NCBI GenBank assembly: GCA_963787995.1
Contig: CAWBEO010000001.1
Span: 78,337 to 142,336, forward strand
DNA length: 64,000 nt
Source: an uncultured Acidobacteriaceae bacterium
GTDB taxonomy: Bacteria > Acidobacteriota > Terriglobia > Terriglobales > Acidobacteriaceae
Direction: 5' to 3'
Part shown: positions 17,364 to 37,138 of the stretch, one piece after another
Layout of the letters: every line of letters begins with the position of its first letter
How positions within the stretch are numbered: the stretch's first letter is position 1
Position numbers and translations under genes: made by a program
The notes under the pieces: generated by a model
Seen by the model: only the letters and a program-made list of their open reading frames with translations
What the model was told of the DNA's origin: nothing
Database searches by the model: none

Positions 17364-18128
17364 TTAATCTGTCCTATTTAGGACAGTGCGTGATTGGAAA
17401 CGTCGGACCCGCTTTTCGCGTTCCGCGACCAATTCCGCGATCTCCGGCTTTTCGGCGTTATCACCCGGCATCTGATCGTGCAGGATCACATTCAGCAGGG
17501 ATTTATGCACGCGAATGCGGTCTTTGTAATCAATAAACCCCATATCCCGAAAGCGATTCATGAAGAAGCTCACCCGCGACCGCGTAGTCCCAATCATCTC
17601 CGCCAAAGTCTCCTGCGTGATAGGGGGAATCAAGGTCTCCGGTTCTCCCGGCTGGCCAAACTCCGCCATCAGCAGCAGAATTCGAGCCAGACGTTTTTCG
17701 CTGGAGTTGAAGAGTTGGTCGACCAGATCGGCCTGCGTGCGCATGCTGCGCATCAGCAGAAATTTCATGAACATGTCAGAAAACTCCGGTTCCGCATGCA
17801 TCACGCGGGCCATCTCTTCCCGCGTTATTTTCAGCGCGCTGCATGCAGTGAGAGCCGTGGCCGTGGATAAACGCATCCCTGGCACGGCCGCAAGCGCTCC
17901 CTCGCCTACAAACTCGCCCGCATTGACCAGCGTGATGGTGGCTTCCTTGCCGGCCGCCGAAACGACCGTAACCCGGGCGCGGCCTCTTTGGAGATAGAAG
18001 ACAGAGTCAGCTGGATCGCCCTGGCAAAAGAAGGAATCACGAGCTTCTAGTTGAACGATTCTGCGCCCCAGGCCCGCGTTAGCCAGAAAAGCAGCGGCAT
18101 CGAAGGGGATTGGGGTTGAATGAATCAT
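17364..18128 (-). CDS. Crp/Fnr-family transcriptional regulator
   Basis: cNMP domain (GEFVGE), HTH TQETLAEMIGTTRSRVSFFMNRF. Confidence 0.95.
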   Translation of the reverse strand: MIHSTPIPFDAAAFLANAGLGRRIVQLEARDSFFCQGDPADSVFYLQRGRARVTVVSAAGKEATITLVNAGEFVGEGALAAVPGMRLSTATALTACSALKITREEMARVMHAEPEFSDMFMKFLLMRSMRTQADLVDQLFNSSEKRLARILLLMAEFGQPGEPETLIPPITQETLAEMIGTTRSRVSFFMNRFRDMGFIDYKDRIRVHKSLLNVILHDQMPGDNAEKPEIAELVAEREKRVRRFQSRTVLNRTD

Positions 18129-18544
18129 GGCATGGTCTCATTTCGGAAGCGGTTATGAAGCGCGAACTGCTGCTGGATGCGCAACTGAGCAACTTTGCGA
18201 TCAGATGCAGTTGCGCCGGCGAAGGCAGATTCGCTGGCAAACATCAGGACCCTTGAGAACCGAGCAGGTAGATCCGAGGTAGGGACAAAACATAACAACA
18301 GCAGCGTTCGCCCCATCGACACTTATAGAAATCATAGCTGGAGGCGGAGTTGGGCGGTCTGTTCAATTTTGCTCACACCCGCCGAATAGTTTTTTGCGTT
18401 TGCAATCGGATTCGGGGTGCTCTTCCTCCCTGAGCGTTCTTGCTCAGACGGAGTTCTGTGTTGCCGCTAGTGTGGGAGCTACCTAGTGCGCCTCAGTGCG
18501 CGGAAAGAAAGTGACGCTGCGCATGGGTAGAAAAGGTGGTATTC

Positions 18545-19234
18545 ATGAAGAAACTGATGACGATTGCGGCAGTACTCAGCATAACAAGTGTTTGCTGGGC
18601 GGGAACCGGTCGTGAAGCAACAGTTGACCGGTTGGATCATGCGGGCGCGGTGCTGCGCGAGATCATGGCGGCGCCGGATCGCGGCATTCCGGAAGAAGTT
18701 CTGGAACACGCGAAGTGCATCGCTGTCGTGCCTCATATGATCAAGGGCGGCTTTGTCTTTGGCGCGGAGAATGGCCGCGGTGTAGCTACTTGCCGCACGG
18801 AGAACGGCTGGAGCGCGCCGTCCTTCTTTACCATCACCGGCGGTAGCTGGGGATTGCAGATCGGCGTCGAAGGCGTTGACCTGGTTATGATTATTCAGGG
18901 CGACAAAGGATTTCAGCGCTTGATCGATAGCAAATTCCAGATTGGCGGGGACGCCTCCGCGGCCGCCGGACCGGTGGGACGCCATGCTACAGCCGACACC
19001 GACTGGAAGCTGAATACTGAGATTCTCACTTACTCGCGGGCCAGAGGCTTGTTCGCCGGACTGACTTTGACCGGCGCGGATGTTCGCCGCGACGACGATT
19101 CCACCGAAGCTATTTACGGCCATGAAATCTCCACGCGCCGCATTCTGCGCGGAGACATTGCTGTGCCAGCCGCGGCTCATGCGTTCCTTGATGCTGTCAG
19201 GGATGCGAGGGCGCAAGCCATCGCCTCCAAGTAA
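18545..19234 (+). CDS. SYLF/YSC84-like lipid-binding protein
   Basis: Signal peptide; GIPEEVLEHAKCIAVVP, KGGFVFG, GGSWGLQIG, YSRARGLFAG. Confidence 0.9.
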   Translation: MKKLMTIAAVLSITSVCWAGTGREATVDRLDHAGAVLREIMAAPDRGIPEEVLEHAKCIAVVPHMIKGGFVFGAENGRGVATCRTENGWSAPSFFTITGGSWGLQIGVEGVDLVMIIQGDKGFQRLIDSKFQIGGDASAAAGPVGRHATADTDWKLNTEILTYSRARGLFAGLTLTGADVRRDDDSTEAIYGHEISTRRILRGDIAVPAAAHAFLDAVRDARAQAIASK

Positions 19235-19314
19235 CATTCAACGGTAAGATGCGTTTGGGAAGCCGGAGAATGATCGCAGTTCTCCGGCTTCCGCAACGCG
19301 AAGAAGGAGCTATC

Positions 19315-19464
19315 ATGCTTTGGACAATCTTTGTCATCATTCTCGTGTTGTGGCTTTTGGGTTTCAGCTTCCATATCGCCGGCGGCCTGATTCACCTTCT
19401 GCTGGTTGTAGCCCTCATTGTCCTGGTCATCAACCTGATCTCCGGGCGGCGCAGTAGTCTCTAA
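19315..19464 (+). CDS. lmo0937-family small membrane protein
   Basis: MLWTIFVIILVLWLLGFSFHIAGGLIHLLLVVALIV; AAGGAG RBS. Confidence 0.85.
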   Translation: MLWTIFVIILVLWLLGFSFHIAGGLIHLLLVVALIVLVINLISGRRSSL

Positions 19465-19689
19465 GGAAACAGAACTGAAAAGTTAACCAGAACCTCAGAC
19501 CGTGGCGATACAATCACTGCATTTTGCTGGGCTTTGCAAGAGTGCAGGTGTGTTGCTTTTCGCCACGGACTCGCTGGTTCCACCTTCAGTGTGCGCATCA
19601 GCCGAAGGGTCCGATAGAACTTGATCTCTACTGACTTCTGTTGGAATCTGGCAAGTTGTTCAAACACGTTTATTATGAGATCAATGCGC

Positions 19690-19846
19690 TCATCCAGCGA
19701 TGCTGCAACCACAGATCGAACCCGTTGATCCTTCACATCCATCGTTTTCCATGGCATCGCCTCTATCCCTCCGCGCAAGCTTGCGCTTGCGCGGAAGTGT
19801 AAAGCATCTCAGAGACAATGTGTAAAGGATGTCATGGAACTGAACA
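19690..19846 (-). mobile_element. IS481-family remnant: left end plus first ~20 transposase codons
   Basis: Minus strand from 19846 reads TGTTCAGTTCCATGACATCCTTTACAC with a second TTTACAC, then ATG 19757 MPWKTMDVKDQRVR; no integrase core; 3' limit approximate. Confidence 0.7.
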
Positions 19847-19878
19847 AATCGAGATGTGGGCCACCCGCCGTCAAACTA

Positions 19879-20268
19879 TCAATAAATACCGTTAAGCTGC
19901 CGATGGTACGTTGGCATATATGACATCGGCGGCTGCATCGCTTTTTCATAACTTACAATAAAAAAAGTGGATGCAAGCAAAGCGGATATGAGAACGAGTC
20001 GCATCCTGGGGGACATTTTCGGCAGCTTCCAGCCGAGGAGAAACATAGCCGCCGAAACGGCAATTGGCCAAACAAACACTCCAACAATGGACAGGTGCGG
20101 GTACTTAAAAATGCCAACTGTTTCGTCGATCATCCATATGCCAAAACCGCATACGATGTCCCAAAAAAGGTTCAGGATATGACCGCCTGGAAATGGAACA
20201 TACGGTAGAATCACGCCCAGAAAAAGTGGCGAGAGACAAAACCACAGAGATACAAGAGTCCTTCGCAT
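19879..20268 (-). CDS. Orphan putative immunity protein (membrane, 129 aa)
   Basis: GAGGAGG RBS before ATG 20268; AT-rich; several hydrophobic helices; occupies the immunity slot of a cassette. Confidence 0.7.
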   Translation of the reverse strand: MRRTLVSLWFCLSPLFLGVILPYVPFPGGHILNLFWDIVCGFGIWMIDETVGIFKYPHLSIVGVFVWPIAVSAAMFLLGWKLPKMSPRMRLVLISALLASTFFIVSYEKAMQPPMSYMPTYHRQLNGIY

Positions 20269-20287
20269 TCCATCCTCCTCTGAAAAA

Positions 20288-20371
20288 TCATTTGCAGCCC
20301 ATGTAGGCCCGCGGGGCAAGGCAAAGCGCCATCCCCAGCAGCACAATCAGTTTGCCAGTCACGCCGTTCAT
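20288..20371 (-). pseudogene. Signal-peptide-only remnant of a fourth Rhs toxin gene
   Basis: MNGVTGKLIVLLGMALCLAPRAYMGCK*, homologous to the Rhs N-terminus MNGVSRKLIVLLGMGLCLAPRVLA, with the same upstream leader. Confidence 0.85.
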
Positions 20372-20812
20372 TCCGTTCCTTGGGGCGCTGCGTCAGTGGT
20401 CAGTGATCAGAAAAAGACTGCGGGTTGAGGTTCGTGGACTTCTGAACAAGGGCGAAGAAAGGGGGAACGCACCCCGGGGGGGGGGGTAGTTTTTTGGTGA
20501 GTCGAACCTTCACCGAGGATGCGGCTTTCTCCCTTTTCCTTTCTGTTCATCTCTCTCCTTCACTTCCCTAGTCTGCGCGAACGAGTCATAATTCTCTGCA
20601 AAGTTCTTGAAGAAAAAACCTGCGGGTTGAGGTTCTTGGTCTCCCACTCATCCACGATAAAACTGTGGATGAATGGGGCACAAAGGTTCTTGGTTATTTC
20701 ATGACCGGGCAACCTGCCATTAGTGGTGTTTCTCACTTTTTATTCCCGGCACCCGGGCCACCCGCCCACCTGCCACAAAGGTTCTTGGTTATCTTATGAC
20801 CGGGCCACCTGC
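20372..20812. repeat. Inter-cassette spacer, expanded copy (REP-like hairpin 20643-20681, duplicated GGTTCTTGGTTAT..ATGACCGGG segments, ~200-bp insert)
   Basis: Shares blocks with 24417-24565 and 28129-28275. Confidence 0.85.
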
Positions 20813-21231
20813 CCAGCCGTCAACCGGCGTTCGGCCAATCTACACAAGAACCACCCAAGCCAAGCAAATATTCCGAGCACTAAGCCGCCAAATACCCTAG
20901 AGAAGCTCTCATTCCACCACGGCGGATAAAAGCTATCTGAAGCGACGCCCAATAGCACAACATATACTATTGGATTTACTAGCATCATCCATGCGCTCGA
21001 CAATTCCCTGCGTAGCGAGACACCTATCAGGCCACCTGCTATGAATGGCGCTAGTATCGTTCTTACCATAGTATCGTAAGCCGCTGGAGGACTCCAGCCG
21101 CTATGGCGAAAGTCTGTAATGATCGGCCATATGCCATCCACAATACCTGAATCCAGCAGCACAAACACTACGAAGACTAGGAGCCAGAGTGAGAATCCCA
21201 ACAGCAAACGTATCGCACTATTTCTGGTCAT
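20794..21231 (-). CDS. Putative immunity protein of Rhs toxin 1 (about 4 TM)
   Basis: Start overlaps toxin stop (21228-21231); AT-rich; last codons and stop lie within the repeat element. Confidence 0.8.
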   Translation of the reverse strand: MTRNSAIRLLLGFSLWLLVFVVFVLLDSGIVDGIWPIITDFRHSGWSPPAAYDTMVRTILAPFIAGGLIGVSLRRELSSAWMMLVNPIVYVVLLGVASDSFYPPWWNESFSRVFGGLVLGIFAWLGWFLCRLAERRLTAGQVARS

Positions 21232-24200
21232 TTCGTCACCGTAAGGTAGTTTTTCCCATCCTCTTTTTTCAAGAGATCGAGCACTTTACCAAATTGCTGC
21301 ATCGCATGTGGACTATCCTCGCTCACGTTGATACACCCATCACTGACGTGCCCATGGTGCAGTTGTGCGCCGAGCCCATCAAATCTGAAATGATGCGCAT
21401 ATCTAAAGATACGAGACATGCGGTCATTTGGCCATGGTTCGAGCCTGAAACGATCATGCGAGTCTATAAAATACTCATTCATTTTGTAACGTCCTTCAGG
21501 AATTGGGCCGTTTCTGTCAAATTCAAACCGGAGCTGATTCTGCTTCTCGCCCAGGCCCGAAAACACTCCTTCGGGACCAACTGTGTCAACTTCATGTTGA
21601 TTACCAGACAATTTTGCCGATGGTTTGTTTGACGTACAAACCAACGTGTGACCAGATATTGAGTACGAACATTCTGCCATTCCCGTCGGATCAGTTCTAG
21701 TCAGCGGATTGTTCCGCACGTAAGCATACATATTCAGGTGTTGAGGATCCTCAATCCATTCATTGAATTTTTTACGCTCGGAATCTTTCCCCGTGGAGTC
21801 TCCCCCGGAATTCTGCCACTTTAGCCAAGGCAACGGATCGGGCGACATAAAGCGACCCATTGAACTTGCGTAGTACCTTGCCCCGAAGTAGTCGTTGCCT
21901 GATTCGGCGTCTCTTTCTTTGCCGGTGAAGTGGTGTTCGGTGGGGTATTGGGTGCTGGGGAAGTAGGGCGAGCCGGAGGGGTTTTCGCAGCTCAGGCCGT
22001 CGCCGTAGGGAAGGCTGACGCAGGTCTGCTCTAAGACGCCGGCTGCGTCGGTTTGGGCGCGGCGGGTGCCGAGCGGGTCATCGAGATAGAAGTGCAGGCC
22101 GTCGGCGTCGTAGGTGCCGAGCAGCTTGCCGCCGGCCCAGACGTTGGTGTGCTGCCAGGTGAGCCCCATGGTGACCGCATTGGTTCCACCGGTCATGGCC
22201 GCGCCGGAAGAGGAAATCGACAGTCCTGTGGTGGGATTTGATTGAGAGCAGTTGCAGCCGGCGAGGGAGGCGCTGAATGTATAGTTGGCCGCCGATCCCA
22301 CCGTCGTCGAGGTAAATGTCACCACGGGTCCATTGGCCGCGGCGGTGATCAAGCCCCCGCAACTGGCCTGCGAGGCTATTGCAGCCGCGATGGAGGCCGA
22401 CGTCGTTCCGCCCGTTTCTCCGGCTCCGAAATTTACATCGATTACGCAAGACTCACCGTTCGGGAGCGTGCCGATGAGAACAATAAATGCGCCGTTCATC
22501 CCCGATAGCAACGTGCCGGAGATGGTGGCCGAGGCGGTGGAGGCGCTACCTGCGCTTGGAGTACCGACGTTGACGCCGATCTCCGAGAGCTGCTCGCCGC
22601 CCAGGCCGAGGGTGAAGTCGGTGGTGGTTTGGAAGCCGTTTTGGCTGGGGTCGCAGGACCAGGCGGTGAGGAGGCCTTTGGCGACGCGGATGCCGTCGGC
22701 GTCGTAGAGGTAGCCGGTCATGGTGAAGCCGCCCAGGCCGGGGAGGGCGCTGACGGCGCAGATGCGGCCCTCGGCATCGTAGAGGTACTGGTTGCCGGTG
22801 GTGGCGTCGCCGACAACATCGCCCGCCTGATCGTAGTTCAGAGGCGAGGGCGAGGGCTGACTGCCACCCGGCGCGATGACGCCCGTGACTTGGTTATTGG
22901 CGCCAAAGACCCATTGGGAGGCCGACTGAATCGGGCATGGAGTGGATTGCGGACTTTGCACCGTGCGGTTGCCGAAGTCGTCGTAGGCCCAGCAGTAGTA
23001 GGGGGTGACGCCGGGGGGCGTGAGGCTGAGGCCGGAGACAGAGTCGGCGGCGGAGGCGAGGCGGTTGAGCGTGTCGTAGGCGAAGTTCCAGGAGCCCATG
23101 ACGGTGTCGGCATAGGCGAGCAGATTGCCGGCGGGGTCGTAGCCGCCCGCGGGAACGGTGTAGGTGTAGACCGGGAGGCCGGTGGTGGTGGTGCTGGCGG
23201 AGCCGCCTTCGAGGTTGCCGGTGACCGGTGTGGGAACGAAGGACGGCTCGGCGAAGAGCGTGGAGTTCCAACTGGTGGCCTGGAGGCTGTAGCTCAAGTC
23301 GATGGCCGTGGTCTTGGCTTCGATGTAGAGCGCGTCGTCAACGGCGGTAACGGCGACCTGGGTGGTGGAGGCGGTGAGCTTTTCAGCGACCGTGGAGGGG
23401 GTGTCTCCTTGGCCGTAACTGGCTGTGGAGACTGTGGTTCCGCCCACGGTGAGGGTGACCGTGCCGGTGTCGTAGGCGGCCCCGGTGACGGTGATGGGGA
23501 CGGAGAGGTTGAGGCTGGCGTAATCGGCGGCGTCGGAGGGGATGAAGGCGGCGAAGAGCATCTGCTCGCCGGCGGTCAACTGCGGGCTGCCGACGATGGT
23601 AAGGCTGGGCGCGCCCGATCCCGTGGTGGTGGAGTTGGCCAGCACCTTGCCGGCCTCGTTGGTGTAGGTGAAGGCGCCGGCGACGTTGGCGTTGGCGTTG
23701 AACTGCGCGACGCCGAGGAGCGTGGTGTCGGGGATGGCGGCCGGCGCCGGCCAGGTGATTACCGGCGTGGTCTTGAGGACGTTAAGGGTGACGGAGGTGG
23801 TGAGGGGGGCGAATCCTGATCCGGTGGGCGGGGTGTAGACGACCGTGAGCGTCTGCGGGCCGGCGGGCAGAACGGCGCCCGATTGAGGCGTGTAATAGCA
23901 TGTGCCCGGCTGCGCGGGCGCGGTTGAAATCGGGCAGGCGGTCAGCACACCTGCCACGCTGACCTGAGCGTCCAACTGCGCCGCACTCAGCGCCGCCGGA
24001 CGGGTGATGGGCGCGGGAGGAACCCAGGCGAGGGCGGGCGGAGGCGGGTTAAATGTTACCGTGAAGGGCCCTGTGGAGCTGCTGAGGGTGAGCGGCAAAT
24101 TGAAGGTATCCGCACCCTTCAGATGGAGGTACAGCACCGCGCCGACAGCGTGGGCGCAGAGGCCGGAGGCGATATAGTCTTTGGAGAACTTGGCGCCGAA

Positions 24201-24416
24201 GGCCGAGGCCAGCGAGGCGGGGGTGGAGTACGGGCCGTAGGGGACGGTCTCGGTGAAGGCGTTGCCGGGGGTGTCTTGGAAGGCGATGGTCAGCGAGCCG
24301 GAGGAACTGCCCGACGCGCCCGTCAGGGTCACCGCCGCATCCGCCGCAAGAACCCGCGGGGCAAGGCAAAGCCCCATCCCCAGCAGCACAATCAGTTTGC
24401 GTGACACGCCGTTCAT
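21228..24416 (-). CDS. Rhs C-half toxin 1 with Sec signal; C-terminal Tlde1/DUF2778-like L,D-transpeptidase-fold toxin
   Basis: Core HFTGKERDAESGNDYFGARYY..MGRFMSPD, NNPLTRTDPTG cleavage motif; CT has GPIPEGRY and LHHGHVSDGCINV. Confidence 0.88.
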   Translation of the reverse strand: MNGVSRKLIVLLGMGLCLAPRVLAADAAVTLTGASGSSSGSLTIAFQDTPGNAFTETVPYGPYSTPASLASAFGAKFSKDYIASGLCAHAVGAVLYLHLKGADTFNLPLTLSSSTGPFTVTFNPPPPALAWVPPAPITRPAALSAAQLDAQVSVAGVLTACPISTAPAQPGTCYYTPQSGAVLPAGPQTLTVVYTPPTGSGFAPLTTSVTLNVLKTTPVITWPAPAAIPDTTLLGVAQFNANANVAGAFTYTNEAGKVLANSTTTGSGAPSLTIVGSPQLTAGEQMLFAAFIPSDAADYASLNLSVPITVTGAAYDTGTVTLTVGGTTVSTASYGQGDTPSTVAEKLTASTTQVAVTAVDDALYIEAKTTAIDLSYSLQATSWNSTLFAEPSFVPTPVTGNLEGGSASTTTTGLPVYTYTVPAGGYDPAGNLLAYADTVMGSWNFAYDTLNRLASAADSVSGLSLTPPGVTPYYCWAYDDFGNRTVQSPQSTPCPIQSASQWVFGANNQVTGVIAPGGSQPSPSPLNYDQAGDVVGDATTGNQYLYDAEGRICAVSALPGLGGFTMTGYLYDADGIRVAKGLLTAWSCDPSQNGFQTTTDFTLGLGGEQLSEIGVNVGTPSAGSASTASATISGTLLSGMNGAFIVLIGTLPNGESCVIDVNFGAGETGGTTSASIAAAIASQASCGGLITAAANGPVVTFTSTTVGSAANYTFSASLAGCNCSQSNPTTGLSISSSGAAMTGGTNAVTMGLTWQHTNVWAGGKLLGTYDADGLHFYLDDPLGTRRAQTDAAGVLEQTCVSLPYGDGLSCENPSGSPYFPSTQYPTEHHFTGKERDAESGNDYFGARYYASSMGRFMSPDPLPWLKWQNSGGDSTGKDSERKKFNEWIEDPQHLNMYAYVRNNPLTRTDPTGMAECSYSISGHTLVCTSNKPSAKLSGNQHEVDTVGPEGVFSGLGEKQNQLRFEFDRNGPIPEGRYKMNEYFIDSHDRFRLEPWPNDRMSRIFRYAHHFRFDGLGAQLHHGHVSDGCINVSEDSPHAMQQFGKVLDLLKKEDGKNYLTVTK

Positions 24417-24565
24417 TCCGTTCCTTGGGGCAATGCGTCAGTGGTCAGTGGACAGAAAAGACTGCTGGTTGAGGTTTGTGGTCTCCCACTCATCCACGAT
24501 AAAACTGTGGATGAATGGGGCACAGCGGTTTGTGGTTATTTTTTGACCGGGCCACCTGCCCACCT
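24417..24565. repeat. Inter-cassette spacer with REP-like hairpin (CCCACTCATCCAC-loop-GTGGATGAATGGGG, 24485-24523)
   Basis: Near-identical to 28129-28275. Confidence 0.9.
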
Positions 24566-24574
24566 GCCCCGAAC

Positions 24575-25207
24575 TCATTTCTCGCAATATTGCATCAAAT
24601 CCCTTAATTGGGAACTCAACCCTGCGCCTGAAAAGTGTATATGTAATTTGTGCGGTAAGATTGTGCCGCCTATAGTGATGCCAGCATCCATAAACCCCCC
24701 ACTCATATCCGTAACGATCTTTTTCCATCTTTCTCTCGTACCTTTCAAATATGCTAATGCGAAATATCCATCACACTCAAATCCTGGATCATACCACTTT
24801 GAATCTCCATAAAGAGGGTACGTTACGATTTTTTCGATTTGTGACTTCAGATTTACTGACATTTCAAATGTACTCCCATTTTGCACATTATTAGGGATGT
24901 CCGGCCCAATAAACATAGACAACTCTTTATCTGGAATAATATCGTGAACATTTTCGATATATATTCCTAATACTGGGACTCCTGACTTTCCTGATTCAAT
25001 ATGTTCAAAAATAAATACACTTGCCTTCATCTTCTTGCCGCCATATTCTGCCTCAGCAGGAATGGAGATTGCAACTATATTTTTATCTACTTTACCATCA
25101 TCAGACATAACTGTTTTATGCCATGCAGCTTGAGCATGAGCAAGACTCGATATCGCAGAAAAAACGGTAATCAACACTACAATGAGAGAATTAAATCGAT
25201 TGTTCAT
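24575..25207 (-). CDS. Putative periplasmic immunity protein of Rhs toxin 2
   Basis: Overlaps toxin stop; signal peptide ending AHA-Q; AT-rich. Confidence 0.8.
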   Translation of the reverse strand: MNNRFNSLIVVLITVFSAISSLAHAQAAWHKTVMSDDGKVDKNIVAISIPAEAEYGGKKMKASVFIFEHIESGKSGVPVLGIYIENVHDIIPDKELSMFIGPDIPNNVQNGSTFEMSVNLKSQIEKIVTYPLYGDSKWYDPGFECDGYFALAYLKGTRERWKKIVTDMSGGFMDAGITIGGTILPHKLHIHFSGAGLSSQLRDLMQYCEK

Positions 25208-28128
25208 TTTTTCCCTTTCTTCTGTTCTTTCACTTTAGGTTTGTCATCTGGAAAGAATATTATCCGATAGTTATTAGCATCTTCTTCATAATGTCCGGTG
25301 CTGTTACCTCCAAAATTACGGTCCGACTCTCGAATGCTGGGCACACCATTCCATTGATCAACCATTTTCTCACCAGCAACCACCTTATCGCCAGTCTTTG
25401 TCTTGATTGTATGACTAAAAAATCCAAAATGGAACGCTGCGTGCCCGGTATGTGGCTTACTCCATGAATAAGTATTATTTGGCCCTGCAGCTGTTGCAAT
25501 AGCCGTTCCTATCGGCGTATTTGCATCAGGCTGAGGTCCAAATCTCCACCCTTTTGTAGAACCTGGCGCGTACTTTTGTATCAAAGCTACACATTCGGAT
25601 TTGCCATCAGAACTACTTATTACAGGTTCGCCACCACGCAGCGAACCAACGTCTGAAACGATTAACATATGATACCCTTTAGGTACATTTATTCCGCCAT
25701 TACCTGATGTACTAATTGCAGTTGGGTGCGATGCCTCATTAAATTTATTCCAAAGCTGCCAAATAAGATGACTCAATGGGTCAAAATATGAACCATGGCC
25801 ATCTGAGTCTATTCTATCCATTGGATTATTTTCAACATACGCATACAGATTCAAGGTCTGCGGATCATCCAGCTTCACATACGGAACCGGCTCTGCTTTG
25901 GCGCTCCAGTCGGGCGACATAAAGCGGCCCATGGCGCTGGAGTAGTAGCGGGCTTCGAAGTAGTCGTTGCCGGATTCGGCGTCGCGTTCTTTGCCGGTGA
26001 AGTGGTGTTCGGTGGGGTATTGGGTGCTGGGGAAGTAGGGCGAGCCGTTGGGATTTTCGCAGCTCAGATCGTCGCCGTAGGGAAGGCTGACGCAGGTCTG
26101 CTCCAGGACGCCGGCCGAGTCGGTTTGGGCGCGGCGGGTGCCAAGCGGGTCATCGAGATAGAAGTGCAGGCCGTCGGCGTCGTAGGTGCCGAGCAGCTTG
26201 CCGCCGGCCCAGACGTTGGTGTGCTGCCAGGTGAGCGTGGCGGTGACCGTGACGCTGGAGCCGGAGCCGGTGAGGGTCTGGTTGACGCCGATCTCCGAGA
26301 GCTGCTCGCCGCCCAGGCCGAGGGTGAAGTCGGTGGTGGTTTGGAAGCCGTTTTGGCTGGGGTCGCAGGACCAGGCGGTGAGGAGGCCTTTGGCGACGCG
26401 GATGCCGTCGGCGTCGTAGAGGTAGCCGGTCATGGTGAAGCCGCCCAGGCCGGAGAGGGCGCTGACGGCGCAGATGCGGCCCTCGGCATCGTAGAGGTAC
26501 TGGTTGCCGGTGGTGGCGTCGCCGACAACATCGCCCGACTGGTCGTAGTTCAGAGGCGAGGGCGAGGGCTGACTGCCACCCGGCGCGATGACGCCCGTGA
26601 CTTGGTTATTGGCGCCAAAGACCCATTGGGAGGCCGACTGAATCGGGCATGGAGTGGATTGCGGACTTTGCACCGTGCGGTTGCCGAAGTCGTCGTAGGC
26701 CCAGCAGTAGTAGGGGGTGACGCCGGGGGGCGTGAGGCTGAGGCCGGAGACAGAGTCGGCGGCGGAGGCGAGGCGGTTGAGCGTGTCGTAGGCGAAGTTC
26801 CAGGAGCCCATGACGGTGTCGGCATAGGCGAGCAGATTGCCGGCGGGGTCGTAGCCGCCCGCGGGAACGGTGTAGGTGTAGACCGGGAGGCCGGTGGTGG
26901 TGGTGCTGGCGGAGCCGCCTTCGAGGTTGCCGGTGACCGGTGTGGGAACGAAGGACGGCTCGGCGAAGAGCGTGGAGTTCCAACTGGTGGCCTGGAGGCT
27001 GTAGCTCAAGTCGATGGCCGTGGTCTTGGCTTCGATGTAGAGCGCGTCGTCAACGGCGGTAACGGCGACCTGGGTGGTGGAGGCGGTGAGCTTTTCAGCG
27101 ACCGTGGAGGGGGTGTCTCCTTGGCCGTAACTGGCTGTGGAGACTGTGGTTCCGCCCACGGTGAGGGTGACCGTGCCGGTGTCGTAGGCGGCCCCGGTGA
27201 CGGTGATGGGGACGGAGAGGTTGAGGCTGGCGTAATCGGCGGCGTCGGAGGGGATGAAGGCGGCGAAGAGCATCTGCTCGCCGGCGGTCAACTGCGGGCT
27301 GCCGACGATGGTAAGGCTGGGCGCGCCCGATCCCGTGGTGGTGGAGTTGGCCAGCACCTTGCCGGCCTCGTTGGTGTAGGTGAAGGCGCCGGCGACGTTG
27401 GCGTTGGCGTTGAACTGCGCGACGCCGAGGAGCGTGGTGTCGGGGATGGCGGCCGGCGCCGGCCAGGTGATTACCGGCGTGGTCTTGAGGACGTTAAGGG
27501 TGACGGAGGTGGTGAGGGGGGCGAATCCTGATCCGGTGGGCGGGGTGTAGACGACCGTGAGCGTCTGCGGGCCGGCGGGCAGAACGGCGCCCGATTGAGG
27601 CGTGTAATAGCATGTGCCCGGCTGCGCGGGCGCGGTTGAAATCGGGCAGGCGGTCAGCACACCTGCCACGCTGACCTGAGCGTCCAACTGCGCCGCACTC
27701 AGCGCCGCCGGACGGGTGATGGGCGCGGGAGGAACCCAGGCGAGGGCGGGCGGAGGCGGGTTAAATGTTACCGTGAAGGGCCCTGTGGAGCTGCTGAGGG
27801 TGAGCGGCAAATTGAAGGTATCCGCACCCTTCAGATGGAGGTACAGCACCGCGCCGACAGCGTGGGCGCAGAGGCCGGAGGCGATATAGTCTTTGGAGAA
27901 CTTGGCGCCGAAGGCCGAGGCCAGCGAGGCGGGGGTGGAGTACGGGCCGTAGGGGACGGTCTCGGTGAAGGCGTTGCCGGGGGTGTCTTGGAAGGCGATG
28001 GTCAGCGAGCCGGAGGAACTGCCCGACGCGCCCGTCAGGGTCACCGCCGCATCCGCCGCAAGAACCCGCGGGGCAAGGCAAAGCCCCATCCCCAGCAGCA
28101 CAATCAGTTTGCGTGACACGCCGTTCAT
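25204..28128 (-). CDS. Rhs C-half toxin 2 with Sec signal; C-terminal BPSL0067/Tae2-like peptidoglycan amidase
   Basis: Rhs core, NNPMDRIDSDG; CT has ECVALIQ (Cys), PIGTAIAT, GHAAF (His), DQW. Confidence 0.88.
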   Translation of the reverse strand: MNGVSRKLIVLLGMGLCLAPRVLAADAAVTLTGASGSSSGSLTIAFQDTPGNAFTETVPYGPYSTPASLASAFGAKFSKDYIASGLCAHAVGAVLYLHLKGADTFNLPLTLSSSTGPFTVTFNPPPPALAWVPPAPITRPAALSAAQLDAQVSVAGVLTACPISTAPAQPGTCYYTPQSGAVLPAGPQTLTVVYTPPTGSGFAPLTTSVTLNVLKTTPVITWPAPAAIPDTTLLGVAQFNANANVAGAFTYTNEAGKVLANSTTTGSGAPSLTIVGSPQLTAGEQMLFAAFIPSDAADYASLNLSVPITVTGAAYDTGTVTLTVGGTTVSTASYGQGDTPSTVAEKLTASTTQVAVTAVDDALYIEAKTTAIDLSYSLQATSWNSTLFAEPSFVPTPVTGNLEGGSASTTTTGLPVYTYTVPAGGYDPAGNLLAYADTVMGSWNFAYDTLNRLASAADSVSGLSLTPPGVTPYYCWAYDDFGNRTVQSPQSTPCPIQSASQWVFGANNQVTGVIAPGGSQPSPSPLNYDQSGDVVGDATTGNQYLYDAEGRICAVSALSGLGGFTMTGYLYDADGIRVAKGLLTAWSCDPSQNGFQTTTDFTLGLGGEQLSEIGVNQTLTGSGSSVTVTATLTWQHTNVWAGGKLLGTYDADGLHFYLDDPLGTRRAQTDSAGVLEQTCVSLPYGDDLSCENPNGSPYFPSTQYPTEHHFTGKERDAESGNDYFEARYYSSAMGRFMSPDWSAKAEPVPYVKLDDPQTLNLYAYVENNPMDRIDSDGHGSYFDPLSHLIWQLWNKFNEASHPTAISTSGNGGINVPKGYHMLIVSDVGSLRGGEPVISSSDGKSECVALIQKYAPGSTKGWRFGPQPDANTPIGTAIATAAGPNNTYSWSKPHTGHAAFHFGFFSHTIKTKTGDKVVAGEKMVDQWNGVPSIRESDRNFGGNSTGHYEEDANNYRIIFFPDDKPKVKEQKKGKK

Positions 28129-28275
28129 TCCGTTCCTTGGGGCAATGCGTCAGTGGTCAGTGGACAGAAAAGACTGCTGGTTGAGGTTTGTGGTCTCCCA
28201 CTCATCCACGATAAAACTGTGGATGAATGGGGCACAGAGGTTCTTGGTTATTTTATGACCGGGCCACCTGCCCCA
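28129..28275. repeat. Inter-cassette spacer with REP-like hairpin (28197-28235)
   Basis: Near-identical to 24417-24565. Confidence 0.9.
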
Positions 28276-28285
28276 CAGTTCTATA

Positions 28286-28822
28286 TCAACTTTCACATAG
28301 ATCATAGTCTGACGAGGTATCGGCTGCGTGTGTTAGGCGCCAGCCATCGTGGAACGCAAGCAGTGCATCGGGACCTAACCAATAGCGCTTGACTTTCGTG
28401 AAATCCTTTCGAACTGCTGATCGAACCGCGCGAAACAATTTCACAGATAGCTCTCTATCTGAAATCGTTGAAAAATCTCCCATGATAATCGTTCGTTCCC
28501 CCAACACTCCTCCAGGAGAAAAAAGTATCGATTCCGGATTGAAAATCTGTGTAACATCGAAACGGAGATTGCCATCAATCATTTTCATCGTCTCAACGCG
28601 AATATCATAGTTCTTCTCAACGATCAAATAGGAACCGCTATCGTGTGATCGTTTACCCATCGCGCGCCCCAAACTGGGAATCGCACTGTAGCTTTCATAT
28701 TTTTCAATAGTTGGTCCACTAATTCTCCCCGCTCTGACGTATTTGATCTCGTGAAAATTCTCAATCCTAGTCAAAAGTGCAATCAGATCTTTTTCGCAGG
28801 TGTAAACGTATATTGCACTCAT
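28286..28822 (-). CDS. Putative cytoplasmic immunity protein of Rhs toxin 3
   Basis: Probable start MSAIYVY overlapping the toxin stop, preceded by GGAGGG; no signal peptide; AT-rich. Confidence 0.75.
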   Translation of the reverse strand: MSAIYVYTCEKDLIALLTRIENFHEIKYVRAGRISGPTIEKYESYSAIPSLGRAMGKRSHDSGSYLIVEKNYDIRVETMKMIDGNLRFDVTQIFNPESILFSPGGVLGERTIIMGDFSTISDRELSVKLFRAVRSAVRKDFTKVKRYWLGPDALLAFHDGWRLTHAADTSSDYDLCES

Positions 28823-31800
28823 CTCGCCCTCCAGGTATCCGGTGGTCGTTGAGGCATCGGCGGTAATGGTTTGACTTGTCCCCACTTCGGTACCCAAAGG
28901 AGAATATCATTAGGGTATGCCTTGCGAATTCTACCAAGTGCTGCATCCTCTCTGGGCGTCGGAGCACCATTCGCATCTGTATCCACAGTCTGAATTCTTA
29001 CTCTAACTCCTGTATTTTCATCTTTCATCGTGGTATCCACCCAAGTGGATCCCATCGGTCCGCCTCCAATACCGGGAATGTATTCTTCACTTTGTTCACC
29101 ACCTCCATGTTCTACAACAAGCCCGAGGCGCTTCCAGCTTTGAGCAATATAATAATTTTGACGTCTCGTCATATTGCTGCCCCACCGTCCCCCTCCACCG
29201 CTGAGATATCTGAAGGCAAATCCTTCTAAATGACCGAATTGCTCGGCCAACCCAGCTTCTTGCTCAGGAGTGAGACTCGGGGCTTTTCGTGCAGCTGCCT
29301 CAGCTTTTTTATAGCTTTCAAGCTCATCTTTATAATCTTCCCATTTCTGTATTTCACGTAAATCTTCCGCATCTTCTTTGAGATTCTCCGGCTTTGCTTC
29401 AGTCTTAGGATCCTGTGTCTCCTGATGGCCATCTACATCAACACCTTCAAGTGGGTTATTGCCGACATAGGCATAGAGATTAAGCGTCTGCGGAGTGTCC
29501 AGCTTCGCATACGGCACCGGCTCTTCTTTGGCGCTCCAGTCGGGCGACATAAAGCGGCCCATGGCGCTGGAGTAGTAGCGGGCCCCGAAGTAGTCGTTGC
29601 CGGATTCGGCGTCGCGTTCCTTGCCGGTGAAGTGGTGTTCGGTGGGGTATTGGGTGCTGGGGAAGTAGGGCGAGCCGTTGGGATTTTCGCAGCTCAGGCC
29701 GTCGCCGTAGGGCAGGCTGACGCAGGTCTGCTCCAGGACGCCGGCCGAGTCGGTTTGGGCGCGGCGGGTGCCGAGCGGGTCGTCGAGATAGAAGTGCAGG
29801 CCGTCGGCGTCGTAGGTGCCGAGCAGCTTGCCGCCGGCCCAGACGTTGGTGTGCTGCCAGGTGAGCCCCATGGTGACCGCATTGGTTCCACCGGTCATGG
29901 CCGCGCCGGAAGAGGAAATCGACAGTCCTGTGGTGGGATTTGATTGAGAGCAGTTGCAGCCGGCGAGGGAGGCGCTGAATGTATAGTTGGCCGCCGATCC
30001 CACCGTCGTCGAGGTAAATGTCACCACGGGTCCATTGGCCGCGGCGGTGATCAAGCCCCCGCAACTGGCCTGCGAGGCTATTGCAGCCGCGATGGAGGCC
30101 GGCGTCGTTCCGCCCGTTTCTCCGGCTCCGAAATTTACATCGATTACGCAAGGCTCACCGTTCGGAAGCGTGCCGATGAGAACAATAAATGCGCCGTTCA
30201 TCCCCGATAGCAACGTGCCGGAGACGGTGGCCGAGGCGGTGGAGGCGCTACCTGCGCTTGGAGTACCGACGTTGACGCCGATCTCCGAGAGCTGCTCGCC
30301 GCCCAGGCCGAGGGTGAAGTCGGTGGTGGTTTGGAAGCCGTTTTGGCTGGGGTCGCAGGACCAGGCGGTGAGGAGGCCTTTGGCGACGCGGATGCCGTCG
30401 GCGTCGTAGAGGTAGCCGGTCATGGTGAAGCCGCCCAGGCCGGAGAGGGCGCTGACGGCGCAGATGCGGCCCTCGGCATCGTAGAGGTACTGGTTGCCGG
30501 TGGTGGCGTCGCCGACAACATCGCCCGACTGGTCGTAGTTCAGAGGCGAGGGCGAGGGCTGACTGCCACCCGGCGCGATGACGCCCGTGACTTGGTTATT
30601 GGCGCCAAAGACCCATTGGGAGGCCGACTGAATCGGGCATGGAGTGGATTGCGGACTTTGCACCGTGCGGTTGCCGAAGTCGTCGTAGGCCCAGCAGTAG
30701 TAGGGGGTGACGCCGGGGGGCGTGAGGCTGAGGCCGGAGACAGAGTCGGCGGCGGAGGCGAGGCGGTTGAGCGTGTCGTAGGCGAAGTTCCAGGAGCCCA
30801 TGACGGTGTCGGCATAGGCGAGCAGATTGCCGGCGGGGTCGTAGCCGCCCGCGGGAACGGTGTAGGTGTAGACCGGGAGGCCGGTGGTGGTGGTGCTGGC
30901 GGAGCCGCCTTCGAGGTTGCCGGTGACCGGTGTGGGAACGAAGGACGGCTCGGCGAAGAGCGTGGAGTTCCAACTGGTGGCCTGGAGGCTGTAGCTCAAG
31001 TCGATGGCCGTGGTCTTGGCTTCGATGTAGAGCGCGTCGTCAACGGCGGTAACGGCGACCTGGGTGGTGGAGGCGGTGAGCTTTTCAGCGACCGTGGAGG
31101 GGGTGTCTCCTTGGCCGTAACTGGCTGTGGAGACTGTGGTTCCGCCCACGGTGAGGGTGACCGTGCCGGTGTCGTAGGCGGCCCCGGTGACGGTGATGGG
31201 GACGGAGAGGTTGAGGCTGGCGTAATCGGCGGCGTCGGAGGGGATGAAGGCGGCGAAGAGCATCTGCTCGCCGGCGGTCAACTGCGGGCTGCCGACGATG
31301 GTAAGGCTGGGCGCGCCCGATCCCGTGGTGGTGGAGTTGGCCAGCACCTTGCCGGCCTCGTTGGTGTAGGTGAAGGCGCCGGCGACGTTGGCGTTGGCGT
31401 TGAACTGCGCGACGCCGAGGAGCGTGGTGTCGGGGATGGCGGCCGGCGCCGGCCAGGTGATTACCGGCGTGGTCTTGAGGACGTTAAGGGTGACGGAGGT
31501 GGTGAGGGGGGCGAATCCTGATCCGGTGGGCGGGGTGTAGACGACCGTGAGCGTCTGCGGGCCGGCGGGCAGAACGGCGCCCGATTGAGGCGTGTAATAG
31601 CATGTGCCCGGCTGCGCGGGCGCGGTTGAAATCGGGCAGGCGGTCAGCACACCTGCCACGCTGACCTGAGCGTCCAACTGCGCCGCACTCAGCGCCGCCG
31701 GACGGGTGATGGGCGCGGGAGGAACCCAGGCGAGGGCGGGCGGAGGCGGGTTAAATGTTACCGTGAAGGGCCCTGTGGAGCTGCTGAGGGTGAGCGGCAA

Positions 31801-32118
31801 ATTGAAGGTATCCGCACCCTTCAGATGGAGGTACAGCACCGCGCCGACAGCGTGGGCGCAGAGGCCGGAGGCGATATAGTCTTTGGAGAACTTGGCGCCG
31901 AAGGCCGAGGCCAGCGAGGCGGGGGTGGAGTACGGGCCGTAGGGGACGGTCTCGGTGAAGGCGTTGCCGGGGGTGTCTTGGAAGGCGATGGTCAGCGAGC
32001 CGGAGGAACTGCCCGACGCGCCCGTCAGGGTCACCGCCGCATCCGCCGCAAGAACCCGCGGGGCAAGGCAAAGCCCCATCCCCAGCAGCACAATCAGTTT
32101 GCGTGACACGCCGTTCAT
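28819..32118 (-). CDS. Rhs C-half toxin 3 with Sec signal; C-terminal putative nuclease (PD-(D/E)XK-like)
   Basis: Rhs core, NNPLEGVDVDG; CT has EEYIP...TWVDTTM...RIQTVDT; toxin class is inferred. Confidence 0.85.
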   Translation of the reverse strand: MNGVSRKLIVLLGMGLCLAPRVLAADAAVTLTGASGSSSGSLTIAFQDTPGNAFTETVPYGPYSTPASLASAFGAKFSKDYIASGLCAHAVGAVLYLHLKGADTFNLPLTLSSSTGPFTVTFNPPPPALAWVPPAPITRPAALSAAQLDAQVSVAGVLTACPISTAPAQPGTCYYTPQSGAVLPAGPQTLTVVYTPPTGSGFAPLTTSVTLNVLKTTPVITWPAPAAIPDTTLLGVAQFNANANVAGAFTYTNEAGKVLANSTTTGSGAPSLTIVGSPQLTAGEQMLFAAFIPSDAADYASLNLSVPITVTGAAYDTGTVTLTVGGTTVSTASYGQGDTPSTVAEKLTASTTQVAVTAVDDALYIEAKTTAIDLSYSLQATSWNSTLFAEPSFVPTPVTGNLEGGSASTTTTGLPVYTYTVPAGGYDPAGNLLAYADTVMGSWNFAYDTLNRLASAADSVSGLSLTPPGVTPYYCWAYDDFGNRTVQSPQSTPCPIQSASQWVFGANNQVTGVIAPGGSQPSPSPLNYDQSGDVVGDATTGNQYLYDAEGRICAVSALSGLGGFTMTGYLYDADGIRVAKGLLTAWSCDPSQNGFQTTTDFTLGLGGEQLSEIGVNVGTPSAGSASTASATVSGTLLSGMNGAFIVLIGTLPNGEPCVIDVNFGAGETGGTTPASIAAAIASQASCGGLITAAANGPVVTFTSTTVGSAANYTFSASLAGCNCSQSNPTTGLSISSSGAAMTGGTNAVTMGLTWQHTNVWAGGKLLGTYDADGLHFYLDDPLGTRRAQTDSAGVLEQTCVSLPYGDGLSCENPNGSPYFPSTQYPTEHHFTGKERDAESGNDYFGARYYSSAMGRFMSPDWSAKEEPVPYAKLDTPQTLNLYAYVGNNPLEGVDVDGHQETQDPKTEAKPENLKEDAEDLREIQKWEDYKDELESYKKAEAAARKAPSLTPEQEAGLAEQFGHLEGFAFRYLSGGGGRWGSNMTRRQNYYIAQSWKRLGLVVEHGGGEQSEEYIPGIGGGPMGSTWVDTTMKDENTGVRVRIQTVDTDANGAPTPREDAALGRIRKAYPNDILLWVPKWGQVKPLPPMPQRPPDTWRAR

Positions 32119-32147
32119 TCCGTTCCCTCTCGGTGACGCCGTGGTAC

Positions 32148-35100
32148 TTACTGCAGTGTGACAACCGCTTCAATGACGCCCTTGCCGGAGTCGAGCGAGC
32201 CGAGGGCCTTGCCGATGACCGCGCCCAACATGCGGCTGCGGTCGGTGCCCTTCATGGCATAACCGGTGGTGGAGGATGCGACCAGCAGATCGCCGATTTT
32301 GATGGGGCCGTTTTCCGCGCTCACCTTGACGGGGACAATGCCCACCAAGGCCATAGGCACCTCATCGGGAGATTTCGGGGTGGTCTGGCGGCGGCCTACG
32401 GTGCCGGGCTTGGTGGAATAGATGCCGGTGACCAGCGTCGAATAGGCCTCGTTGGACTTGAGGAACTTGCCGGGCGCGCTGGGATCAATGACCAGCACGT
32501 CGCCCGGCGTGAAGTTCTTGCGGTCGCCGGAGACATTGACCGACTCGGCATAGTCGCCGCCGCAGGTGACGCCGGTGTAGGCGGTGGACTGGGTGGTGCC
32601 GTCAGAGAAGGTGAGGGCGCCGCCGCTGCCGCTGGTCAACGTGATACCGCCGTTGACTTCGAGCTTCGCGCCGGGGGTGGTTGTGCCGATGCCGAGTGAA
32701 CCGGCTCCGGTCAAAAACATCAGAGTCGTTCGCGGGGTTCCGCTGATAGGAGCGTTCATGAACGCAAATCCACCCGATCCGCCGCCCTGATTATTGATGA
32801 AGTCCGTTTCTCCTGTGCCCTTGGTTAGCGCATTCCAGCCCAAATACGCACCCTGTGCTGCTGTTGTGGGGTTCGTATTTCCTGACACATGCAAGTAACC
32901 GTTGACATCAAGAGGCACCGCGGGAATCGTCGTTCCTATTCCCACGTTTCCACTTGGTATAACGACGTTCGTCCACCCGCCCTGGTTGATTGTCAAGGTT
33001 CCAGTTTGTGCCTGAATGACGCTCCAGGCTGACCCTGCGCCGCCTATTGATAGAGCACCTGAAGTTCCGCCAGGATATCCGCTTCCTGAAGTGCCAGTGA
33101 TCACTATGTTCCCCGCCACGTCTAAGGCTGAAGCCGGTGTCGTCGTCCCGATCCCGACGCTGCCGGAAGTATTCCAAATTCCGTTTCCGGGAAAATTCGT
33201 GTTTGCGGTGAATGTCTGCGGCGCGCTCCATGTCGTGGCGCTGACCGTCGGCCAGGATGTGATGCAGTTTGTGCCATTGATGCAGTAGCCGCCCGATGAA
33301 TTGATCTGGCCAGAAACGTCGAGCTTAAAAGCTGGTGTCGTCGTGCCGATGCCGACGCTGCCGAGGCCTAAATAATATTGCGACGCATAAAATCCCATTG
33401 GGGTATAAGCAGTATTGGCATCGTTAATCGAAAGAATGCCTGGCGTTCCGCTGAAAGCGCTATTTACATTGGAAATAAAATTTATGTGCTGATTGGTTCC
33501 CAATTTAATATCAACATTGCCGATCGGTGACGTCGTTCCAAACCCGACACTTCCGCCTCCATTGACCACCAACGCCTGCGGAGTGATTTTTGTTCCTGTT
33601 GGATTAAACACTTGCAGGGCCAGATAATCCGATCCCTGAGTTGTGCTTCCCGTATGAGTGAACTGATAAGCGTAAGCGGACGGGTTGAAGATGGCTCCAG
33701 TAGTAATCTCCTGATTGAATGCAAGCGAGCCAAAAGTGGTTCCCCCATCGCCTGGATCAATGCTTACGCCTGTTCCATTACTGTTGATATCGAGCTTGCT
33801 GCTTGGAGTAGTCGTGCCAATACCGACGTTTTCAGAGGGCAACTGAGTGATCACGGAGTTGGTAAGCGTAGAAGTAGTGGGAGAGGAAGGAGTGGTCAGC
33901 AAGGGCACGTTGCCTACAATGGGAGTCACTGACTTGGCGACCACGATGCTCTGCGTCACAGTAGGGGCCGCAGAATAAGTGCTGTTGCCGGCCTGCGTCG
34001 CCTGAATGGTGCAAGTACCTGTGGCAAGGAAGGTTGCCGTTGTGCCGGAGACGGTGCAAACACTGGTCGTAGTCGAGGCAAAGCTGACGGCCAAACCAGA
34101 ACTGGCCGTAGCTGTTAGAGTCAGCGGCGTACCTACTGTCTGCAAAGCAATATATGGGAAACTAATGGTCTGCGCAGTGCCATTGACAGTAAAGCTCTGT
34201 GTCACGGTAGGGGCCGCAGCGTAAGCGCTGTTGCCGGCCTGCGTCGCCTGAATGGTGCAAGTGCCAGCGGCAATGAAGGTTGCCGTCGTTCCAGAGACGG
34301 TGCAAACGCTCGTCGTCGTCGAGGCGAAGCTGACAGTCAAACCAGAACTGGCTGTAGCTGTAAGCGTTAGTGGCGTTCCTATGCTCTGTGTGCTGGGAGC
34401 GGCAAAGGTGATAGTCTGCGACTTCGAATTAACACTAAAGCTCTGTGTCACGGCAGGGGCCGCAGTGAAGGAGCTGTTGCCGGCCTGCGTCGCCTGAATG
34501 GTGCATGTGCCTGTGGCGATGAAAGTTGCTGTCGTGCCGGAAACTGTGCAAACGCTGGTCGTTGTCGAGGCAAAGCTGACGGCCAAACCAGAGCTAGCCG
34601 TAGCCGAAAGCGTCAGCGGTGTCCCCACCGTCTGGGTGCTGGGAGCGGCAAAGGTGATGGTCTGCGATCCTATGCTGGCAGTAAAGCTCTGTGTCACCGC
34701 CGGGGCCGCAGCGTAAGTGCTGTTGCCGGCCTGCGTCGCCTGAATGGTGCATGTGCCCGTGGCAATAAAGTTTGCCGTCGTGCCAGAGACTGTGCAAACG
34801 CTGGTCGTTGTCGAGGCAAAGCTGACGGCCAAACCAGAGCTAGCCGTAGCCGAAAGCGTCAGCGGTGTTCCCACCGTCTGGGGGCTGGGAGCGGCAAAGG
34901 TAATGGTCTGCGCCTTGCCATTGACAGTAAAGCTTTGTGTCACCACAGGAGCGGCAGCGTAAGTGCTGTTGCCTGCCTGCGTTGCCTGAATGGTGCAAGT
35001 GCCGGCGGCGAGGAATGTGGCAGTTGTGCTGGAGACAGTGCAAATGCTAGTCGTCGTCGAGGCAAAGCTGACTGCCAAACCAGAACTCGCCGTGGCCGAA

Positions 35101-37091: not shown

Positions 37092-37138
37092 GGTTTCTCC
37101 TAAGTCGATCTTCTGGGTGTGCATTCCGTGCGCGAAAT

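Follow-up and report, generated by a model that had tools for sequence, protein, structure and literature searches.

The window analysed here, a 64-kb stretch of the 5.59-Mb genome (two contigs, C1 and C2) of an uncultured acidobacterium of the genus Terracidiphilus, carries a tandem array of three Rhs toxin genes with their putative immunity genes, and the spacers of this array are formed by copies of a dispersed hairpin repeat, hereafter element E, which appears to mark joints at which toxin-immunity cassettes were duplicated, moved or trimmed. Every gene of the array region lies on the minus strand. A fibre-like open reading frame (ORF) of 1664 aa (32148–37142) comes first, and RhsA (1099 aa, 28819–32118), which exhibits a Sec-type leader and an Rhs-associated core, is coupled to it; no E copy is present on the upstream side of RhsA, where the homology to RhsB and RhsC begins ~10 nt before the ATG. 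There follow immA (28286–28897), an ORF that gave no match in the family search and is assigned as the putative immunity gene of cassette A by position only, RhsB (974 aa, 25204–28128), whose C-terminal toxin region (CT) matches the BPSL0067 family, immB (24575–25207), RhsC (1062 aa, 21228–24416) and immC (20794–21231), whose C-terminus and stop codon are encoded by element E. The array is closed by the remnant of a fourth unit (19879–20371, delineated by reading of the sequence and by repeat family D6), which comprises a leader mini-ORF of 27 codons (20288–20371) followed by immD, a membrane ORF of 129 aa (19879–20268).

The NCBIfam profile TIGR03696 (Rhs-associated core) matched RhsA, RhsB and RhsC with 60–63 bits (cut-off 32.5), while Pfam-A at E-value ≤0.01, a library that itself works, returned nothing for the three Rhs proteins or for the immunity proteins; the YD-repeat part of RhsA, RhsB and RhsC (21228–32118) is very divergent. 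RhsA, RhsB and RhsC agree at every position of their initial 1.9 kb (100% identity) and keep their start codons, and their CTs diverge past the core. The window exhibits the organization typical of Rhs toxins, in which the core domain precedes a variable CT and a small ORF. Orphan modules, i.e. downstream modules devoid of the N-terminal delivery part, are absent from the window and present at two dispersed loci (C1:349.5–350.3 kb and C1:938.1–940.0 kb). The array itself is positioned at a synteny break: homology of the left flank to related genomes ends at ~19462, and the four best relatives have no window gene beyond that point. The two genes to the left of the array (17440–19462) are conserved across the genus, with 71–82% DNA identity.

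The motif GGGCCACCYGCC occurs in exact form at 19858, 20755, 20802, 24549 and 28261 and with one mismatch at 20707 (6 matches in the window against 1.1 expected, a number reached in 0 of 100 shuffles), and it corresponds to the 3' terminus, or outer tip, of the ~118-nt element E. An earlier note on this DNA, made from the letters alone, had described four switches from unique DNA into a conserved spacer at this motif, each near an immunity stop codon. All four motif copies concerned (19858, 20802, 24549 and 28261) are indeed exact, and three of them end shortly past a stop, at a distance of 13 nt for immA (stop at 28286), 14 nt for immB (24575) and 9 nt for immD (19879); immC reads through its motif and receives its last 7 codons and stop from E, just as the note had stated for the first immunity gene. 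The 'conserved spacer' turned out to be nearly all one copy of E plus ~25 nt of Rhs leader. The E copies, which nhmmer confined within the window to the Rhs array, occupy almost the entire gap from the immunity stop to the next Rhs start and lie on the plus strand, antisense to the Rhs genes. S_AB, between the immA stop and the RhsB start (28155–28272), is a full-length nhmmer match (E-value 2.5e-24) with a hairpin at 28196–28232 and the terminal motif at 28261–28272; S_BC, between the immB stop and the RhsC start (24443–24560, E-value 2.1e-23), has its hairpin at 24484–24520 and its motif at 24549–24560; and S_CD (20613–20718, E-value 8e-20) has its hairpin at 20642–20678 and a degenerate terminal motif, GGGCAACCTGCC, at 20707–20718. 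The spacer hairpin noted earlier is hence present at three sites, with a 13-bp stem on the gene-sense strand, and its predicted folds have modest z-scores (-2.2 to -2.8). Positions 19500–32500 gave no match in Rfam (E-value ≤1). The 5' tails of E carry variable runs of GGTCAGR/GATCAGG heptamers, seen in the window at 28140–28175 and 24428–24463 and at a second locus of this genome, downstream of ppk (L079:3141–3190).

The S_CD region is more complex than the other two spacers. Past the degenerate motif lies a further stretch (20755–20813, plus strand, repeat family D8), in which an extra motif (20755–20766) is followed by a second copy of the 3' tail (20774–20813); this copy ends in the motif at 20802–20813 and provides the end of immC. 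On the other side, upstream of the remnant Rhs leader, an isolated 5' fragment of E (20398–20442, plus strand, model positions 2–45 in nhmmer) is followed by a 170-nt module (20443–20612, plus strand), held within the S_CD region, which contains a G-run and a polypyrimidine stretch. This module is itself a dispersed repeat with ~40 copies (blastn against the genome, 75–90% identity). Outside the array, it is usually found immediately adjoining an E copy on the 5' side, an arrangement that points to a longer composite element of ~290 nt. The fourth switch into spacer described by the earlier note did not hold: at 19846–19869 (plus strand) there is only the bare motif (19858–19869), the element model gave no match at this site, and the sequence to the left of the motif has no homology to the spacers. 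The site may be a relic, or the decayed 3' half of a short-form E. A chance origin of the motif there was considered and rejected, as ~4 random copies are expected in the whole genome and the probability of one falling in the right orientation 9 nt from the last cassette stop is estimated at ~1e-5.

Iterated nhmmer searches seeded with the three window spacers revealed 237 copies of E in the genome at convergence and 247 in the union of rounds, and the exact motif GGGCCACCYGCC occurs 28 times (~4 expected), mostly at a fixed distance after a hairpin. In order, E comprises a heptamer-rich 5' tail, a conserved 5' arm, an imperfect hairpin of 12–14 bp with an A-rich loop, a tail of 25–35 nt and the terminal motif. 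A hairpin of at least 8 bp is present in 230 of the 247 copies, with 183 distinct left arms; the outer pairs of the stem are paired in 83–96% of copies, and at one pair AT, TA and GC alternate, i.e. covary, as read from an alignment that was not structure-aware. At a fixed position of the stem, 64% of the copies exhibit a C.A mismatch, which becomes G.U on the opposite, gene-sense strand. The earlier description of the element as REP-like (repetitive extragenic palindrome) is thereby borne out by the 28 exact motifs, the ~240–250 copies and the conserved imperfect hairpin. E is intergenic in 64% of copies, compared to 9% of random sites, and a stop codon precedes about half of the copies by no more than 80 nt (137 E-stop adjacencies); outside the window, 24 long-form copies are antisense and 8 sense to the upstream gene. 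Most copies follow ordinary genes, including a fabD-like gene and ppk, and sites beside low-GC flanks are ~2-fold enriched. Proximity to stop codons and antisense orientation are general habits of the E family, which is not Rhs-specific. In this genome E occurs mostly as singlets or direct dimers, and inverted doublets with motif termini were found on an ENA contig (L085). An ORF of 134 aa without a Pfam match (L079:2631–3032, G000 C1:347630–348031) has four occurrences in the genome, each beside E (paralogues at C1:197224, C1:1085820 and C1:240135); one of the four adjoins a RAYT-like gene. The ORF is found in 12 of 100 genomes of the genus.

E has a candidate enzyme of its own. Six Y1_Tnp genes were identified in the genome, four of which pass the NCBIfam model NF047646 (REP-associated tyrosine transposase, RAYT), among them C1:1148460–1148975 (90 bits, cut-off 80), which has an antisense E copy ~40 nt upstream and a sense E copy overlapping its 3' end, with the motifs pointing outward on both sides. 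This arrangement recurs in the orthologues: among the 74 loci with both flanks available, from metagenome-assembled genomes labelled Terracidiphilus or Acidobacteriaceae, an antisense E lies ~38 nt upstream in 61, an E overlaps the 3' end in 68, and both are present in 63. The search for a RAYT with matching REPs proposed in the earlier note was thus successful, with flanking E copies conserved across the genus, and other RAYT genes of the genome have different hairpins at their flanks. Taken together, the comparisons of these loci show that the E family is of the REP type and has this RAYT as its cognate enzyme, and a Y1 transposase of this class most likely maintains it. A second REP family, with the hairpin GGCACGAC...GTCGTGCC, brackets the RAYT gene C2:453868–454359 (L034 flanks) and is found again next to the E cluster that follows ppk (L079:5618–5640); at least three further RAYT genes are flanked by hairpins of their own.

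Five Rhs loci were identified in the genome, and at four of them E is antisense and flanks the cassettes. Apart from the window array, these include an orphan downstream of ppk, in which an Rhs fragment of 251 aa and an ORF of 372 aa lie between direct E dimers of 95–97% identity, with the Rhs fragment breaking exactly at the 5' arm of E, and a second orphan (C1:937.5–940.1 kb) with E on both sides, in which the immunity ORF ends inside E; in these dispersed orphans the break of the Rhs fragment falls at an E copy or within ~15 nt of one. At the fourth locus E begins 1 nt past the stop of an ORF lying 3.5 kb beyond the core. Comparison of the C1:940 kb locus with the relatives revealed conservation of a single flank, and one relative (G009) has an E of a different subtype at the same place.

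In related genomes (52 loci with 74 core ends) only 5 core ends have E downstream and most cassettes are devoid of it. All 7 exact motifs found at these loci are antisense to Rhs and lie at joints between an immunity gene and an Rhs fragment; they come from six species, their Rhs breakpoints differ, and the genomes concerned contain just 5–26 motifs apiece. In one relative (L024:5985–6050, G035 C8) three tandem 26-nt units separate E copies from the beginning of an Rhs fragment of 474 aa. An independent sample was provided by 78 metagenomic loci (652 kb), selected by Rhs homology only, none of which is related to this Rhs at >55% identity. Of the 30 E copies that they contain, 26 are antisense, as are 24 of the 26 motifs. 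Over the 3 kb that follow a core end there are 11.9 motifs per 100 kb, compared to 1.2 elsewhere in the set (binomial p=7e-8) and 0.5 in this genome as a whole, and the motifs lie 0.9–1.9 kb past the core end, a distance equal to one CT plus one immunity gene. The enrichment 3' of Rhs cassettes, which the earlier note had asked to be counted, was therefore found both in this genome and in independent metagenomic loci, and the link between E and Rhs cassettes is real and far above chance. At two loci (L026:6925–7062, G003 C108; L246:1606–1815) E is joined directly or by ≤124 nt to the end of the Rhs core, with no CT or immunity gene between them, and at L026 the ORF continues into E.

What does E do at these loci? 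The comparison of spacers gives some indications. The tract of 100% identity between the units of the array extends from Rhs into E as far as the hairpin; the final 30 nt before the motif differ between the cassettes; and S_AB is a hybrid, with a 5' part identical to S_BC and a 3' tail of the S_CD type. E always ends precisely at the motif and raggedly towards Rhs, and across E an immunity gene, sometimes truncated, faces a variably truncated Rhs. The flanks of E are not the two halves of one interrupted sequence, which argues that E copies at Rhs loci are rearrangement joints rather than simple insertions; the direct E repeats at the orphans, the hybrid E and the conversion tract ending in E point the same way. 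The role in recombination attributed to E by the earlier note is supported in so far as the tracts end inside the element, but a fixed anchor, as it envisaged, or a dedicated one is not supported, in view of the 5 of 74 core ends in relatives and of the many E copies after ordinary genes. In the array, the 1.9 kb of 100% identical Rhs makes up most of the homology past each cassette, far more than the 118-nt element.

The explanation that we favour overall, with moderate confidence, is that E is a passive, dispersed hairpin repeat situated at joints of homologous or illegitimate recombination. E tends to settle just past stop codons and is strongly over-represented right after the immunity genes of Terracidiphilus Rhs loci, and its other side abuts the next Rhs copy or fragment. 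The element would contribute only portable homology and a fragile hairpin, and RecA-type recombination, gene-conversion tracts, tandem duplications and deletions would begin or end at it. In the window, an E copy located after an immunity gene may have become the join point for a tandem duplication of [E + whole Rhs gene]; the CT-immunity modules between the Rhs core and E would then have diversified by exchange, with conversion maintaining the identity of the 5' 1.9 kb of Rhs up to the E hairpin. Several points weigh against this explanation. The mechanism is read from static sequence, from which we infer in what order the events took place and that the joints were made by homologous recombination, not by the RAYT. 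Passive homology alone fails to account for the enrichment of E after immunity genes, for which co-travel with the cassettes, an RNA role of the antisense hairpin, or tolerated insertion are possible reasons. The E copies of the array are 89–96% alike and S_CD is 92% identical to a copy on the other contig, i.e. as near to it as to its array neighbours, so that an origin by a single duplication is not proven. Comparisons of insertion sites run into synteny breaks on both flanks, as at the window array, where relatives are not syntenic past ~19462. Finally, the genome-wide statistics of gene context use a crude ORF map, and near-duplicate metagenomic contigs overstate the p-values, though not the direction of the effect.

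Or perhaps E plays no part in cassette dynamics and merely accumulates where insertions are tolerated, i.e. in short gaps after small accessory genes and in silent or foreign DNA, with the array copies carried along by one duplication of an Rhs unit? Such a passive lodger is what one would expect from the predominance of E after ordinary genes, from its ~2-fold preference for low-GC flanks, from the lack of E at most cassettes of the relatives, and from the 1.9 kb of identical Rhs, which offers ample homology without any E. The enrichment after cassettes is 10- to 24-fold, however, and thereby exceeds the low-GC effect, and truncated immunity ORFs facing truncated Rhs across E look like joints, not simple insertions; direct E dimers bracketing a dispersed orphan and a hybrid E copy are likewise not expected of a mere lodger. 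We therefore regard this alternative as unlikely, though credible.

A bolder proposal is that the CT-immunity modules of Terracidiphilus Rhs genes travel as E-capped units, i.e. as a REP-based cassette-exchange system. If so, the REP would provide a universal downstream (and sometimes upstream) homology or a site of RAYT cleavage, and a cassette could integrate at an Rhs array or at any of the ~250 E copies, which would account both for the dispersed, E-bracketed orphans and for the enrichment. We consider this tentative and rather doubtful.

The antisense hairpin could also act at the RNA level, stabilising or insulating the immunity transcript and being retained after immunity genes by selection. 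The hairpin is fully paired on the gene-sense strand, where C.A of the E strand becomes G.U; long-form E is antisense to the upstream gene 3:1 genome-wide and 24:2 in Rhs loci; and E lies within ~20 nt of stops. REPs of E. coli are known to stabilise upstream mRNA, as reported by Newbury and Higgins in 1987. On the other hand, scans of the spacers for sigma-70 promoters and intrinsic terminators found no such signals, the fold z-scores quoted above are modest, and neither the ragged joints with truncated Rhs fragments nor the immunity ORFs truncated by E would find an explanation. As the reason for the distribution of E, an RNA function seems to us decidedly improbable.

A catalysed system, in which the RAYT or another HUH enzyme would cut at the motif end of E and join DNA there, E taking the part of attC, fares worse still. 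The motif end is always precise and the adjoining DNA arbitrary, sometimes with the cut falling into an ORF; the conserved RAYT has flanking E copies whose outer ends are formed by the motif; and the hairpin would be recognisable as single-stranded DNA. A precise terminus is expected of any transposed element, though, and the opposite end of E is ragged; the E copies of arrays form direct repeats, whereas those at the RAYT gene are inverted; up to 3 kb of Rhs is part of the units; most cassettes are devoid of E; and no recombinase lies near the array. We consider this scenario very unlikely. The resemblance to attC sites suggested by the earlier note was abandoned for the same kind of reasons: the ragged Rhs-side ends, the many cassettes devoid of E and the absence of an integrase in the vicinity argue for a dispersed repeat rather than an attC-like site, with 33 matches to PF00589 (tyrosine recombinases) in the genome, none in the window and the nearest ~66 kb from the array, no nearby IntI, attI or Pc, no GTTRRRY core, and E found genome-wide after ordinary genes. 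A composite transposon was rejected, as the E copies around cassettes are direct repeats, in contrast to the inverted termini of the RAYT unit, and their Rhs-side ends are ragged.

Among known systems, the closest counterpart of the E family is provided by REPs, or their REPIN form, with RAYT (TnpA_REP) transposases (Bertels & Rainey 2011, PMC3116915). Like these, E is a high-copy, extragenic, imperfect palindrome; it is inherited across the genus; its Y1 HUH gene is bracketed by inverted copies; and several REP families coexist in the genome, each with its own RAYT. The arrangement of E and RAYT is the standard REP-RAYT one, close to that of the tyrosine transposases flanked by terminal inverted repeats ('TIRYT') described in Acidobacteria (Di Nocera et al. 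2013, PMC3733652). Unlike typical REPs or REPINs, E is a longer unit (~118 nt) that includes a conserved 5' arm, a tail and the terminal motif of 12 nt, occurs in this genome mostly as singlets rather than doublets, and is markedly associated with the ends of Rhs cassettes. Its consensus also lacks a GTAG or CGTC tag beside the stem, the feature by which two REP superfamilies were distinguished (Di Nocera et al. 2013, PMC3733652) and which defines these superfamilies only, not all REPs.

Rearrangements at dispersed palindromes have precedents. In Salmonella, Shyamala and co-workers reportedly found in 1990 that tandem duplications were joined at a REP. In Neisseria, a porA deletion reportedly arose by recombination between REP clusters (van der Ende 1999, ref. 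108 of PMC10210955). As in these cases, dispersed palindromes serve here as end points of duplications and deletions, E being located at the joint of Rhs units and bracketing dispersed orphans; unlike them, where both partners are REPs, one side here is often a truncated Rhs gene, and the association of E with a single class of genes is systematic. With the orphan CT-immunity arrays of Rhs and contact-dependent inhibition (CDI) systems (Poole et al. 2011, PMC3150448; Koskiniemi et al. 2014, PMC3967940) the window shares a conserved core with variable CT and immunity genes in tandem, in which recombination between repeated cores reshuffles the modules. It differs from them in having three full-length genes with start codons and leaders instead of short-core orphans, and in that each downstream unit opens with a REP-type element; instead of adjoining a main gene, the remaining orphans of this genome are scattered, with E on either side. 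Integrons resemble the array in the presence of a hairpin element at the 3' end of each cassette and in the common orientation of the cassettes, and differ from it, beyond the missing components listed above, in that one end of E is ragged and the units contain a large shared gene. A possible parallel is offered by the intergenic mosaic elements (dRS3/RS repeats) of Neisseria, short dispersed repeats that cluster near variable or silent cassettes, namely silent pilS and the maf toxin cassettes, and are considered to favour recombination there. Their sequence family and recombinase context are unrelated to those of E.

In the collection of papers searched, none links REP or REPIN elements to Rhs or other toxin cassettes. 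The gain, loss and scatter of CT-immunity modules are understood on the upstream side only, where the homology of the Rhs core operates, and for the downstream junction no explanation has gained acceptance. Element E, a repeat of the REP type whose RAYT is conserved, recurs at this junction across a genus of soil acidobacteria and is a concrete and testable candidate for the downstream partner, and such a function would be a host-relevant role for REPs, whose function is debated. Even if the association is merely passive, E would be a useful marker of cassette boundaries and recombination tracts.

No homologue of immB was found in 200 genomes of the family, and one with 57% identity was identified on the ENA contig k141_522639 (L085), where it adjoins a truncated toxin CT. 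Of this CT only the last 30 codons are left, the rest having been cut away by REPIN-like doublets whose motif termini are inverted. In the region concerned (L085:9000–9915), two near-identical compound REPIN-like elements separate remnants of toxin C-termini and small immunity ORFs; the toxins are destroyed and the immunity genes persist.

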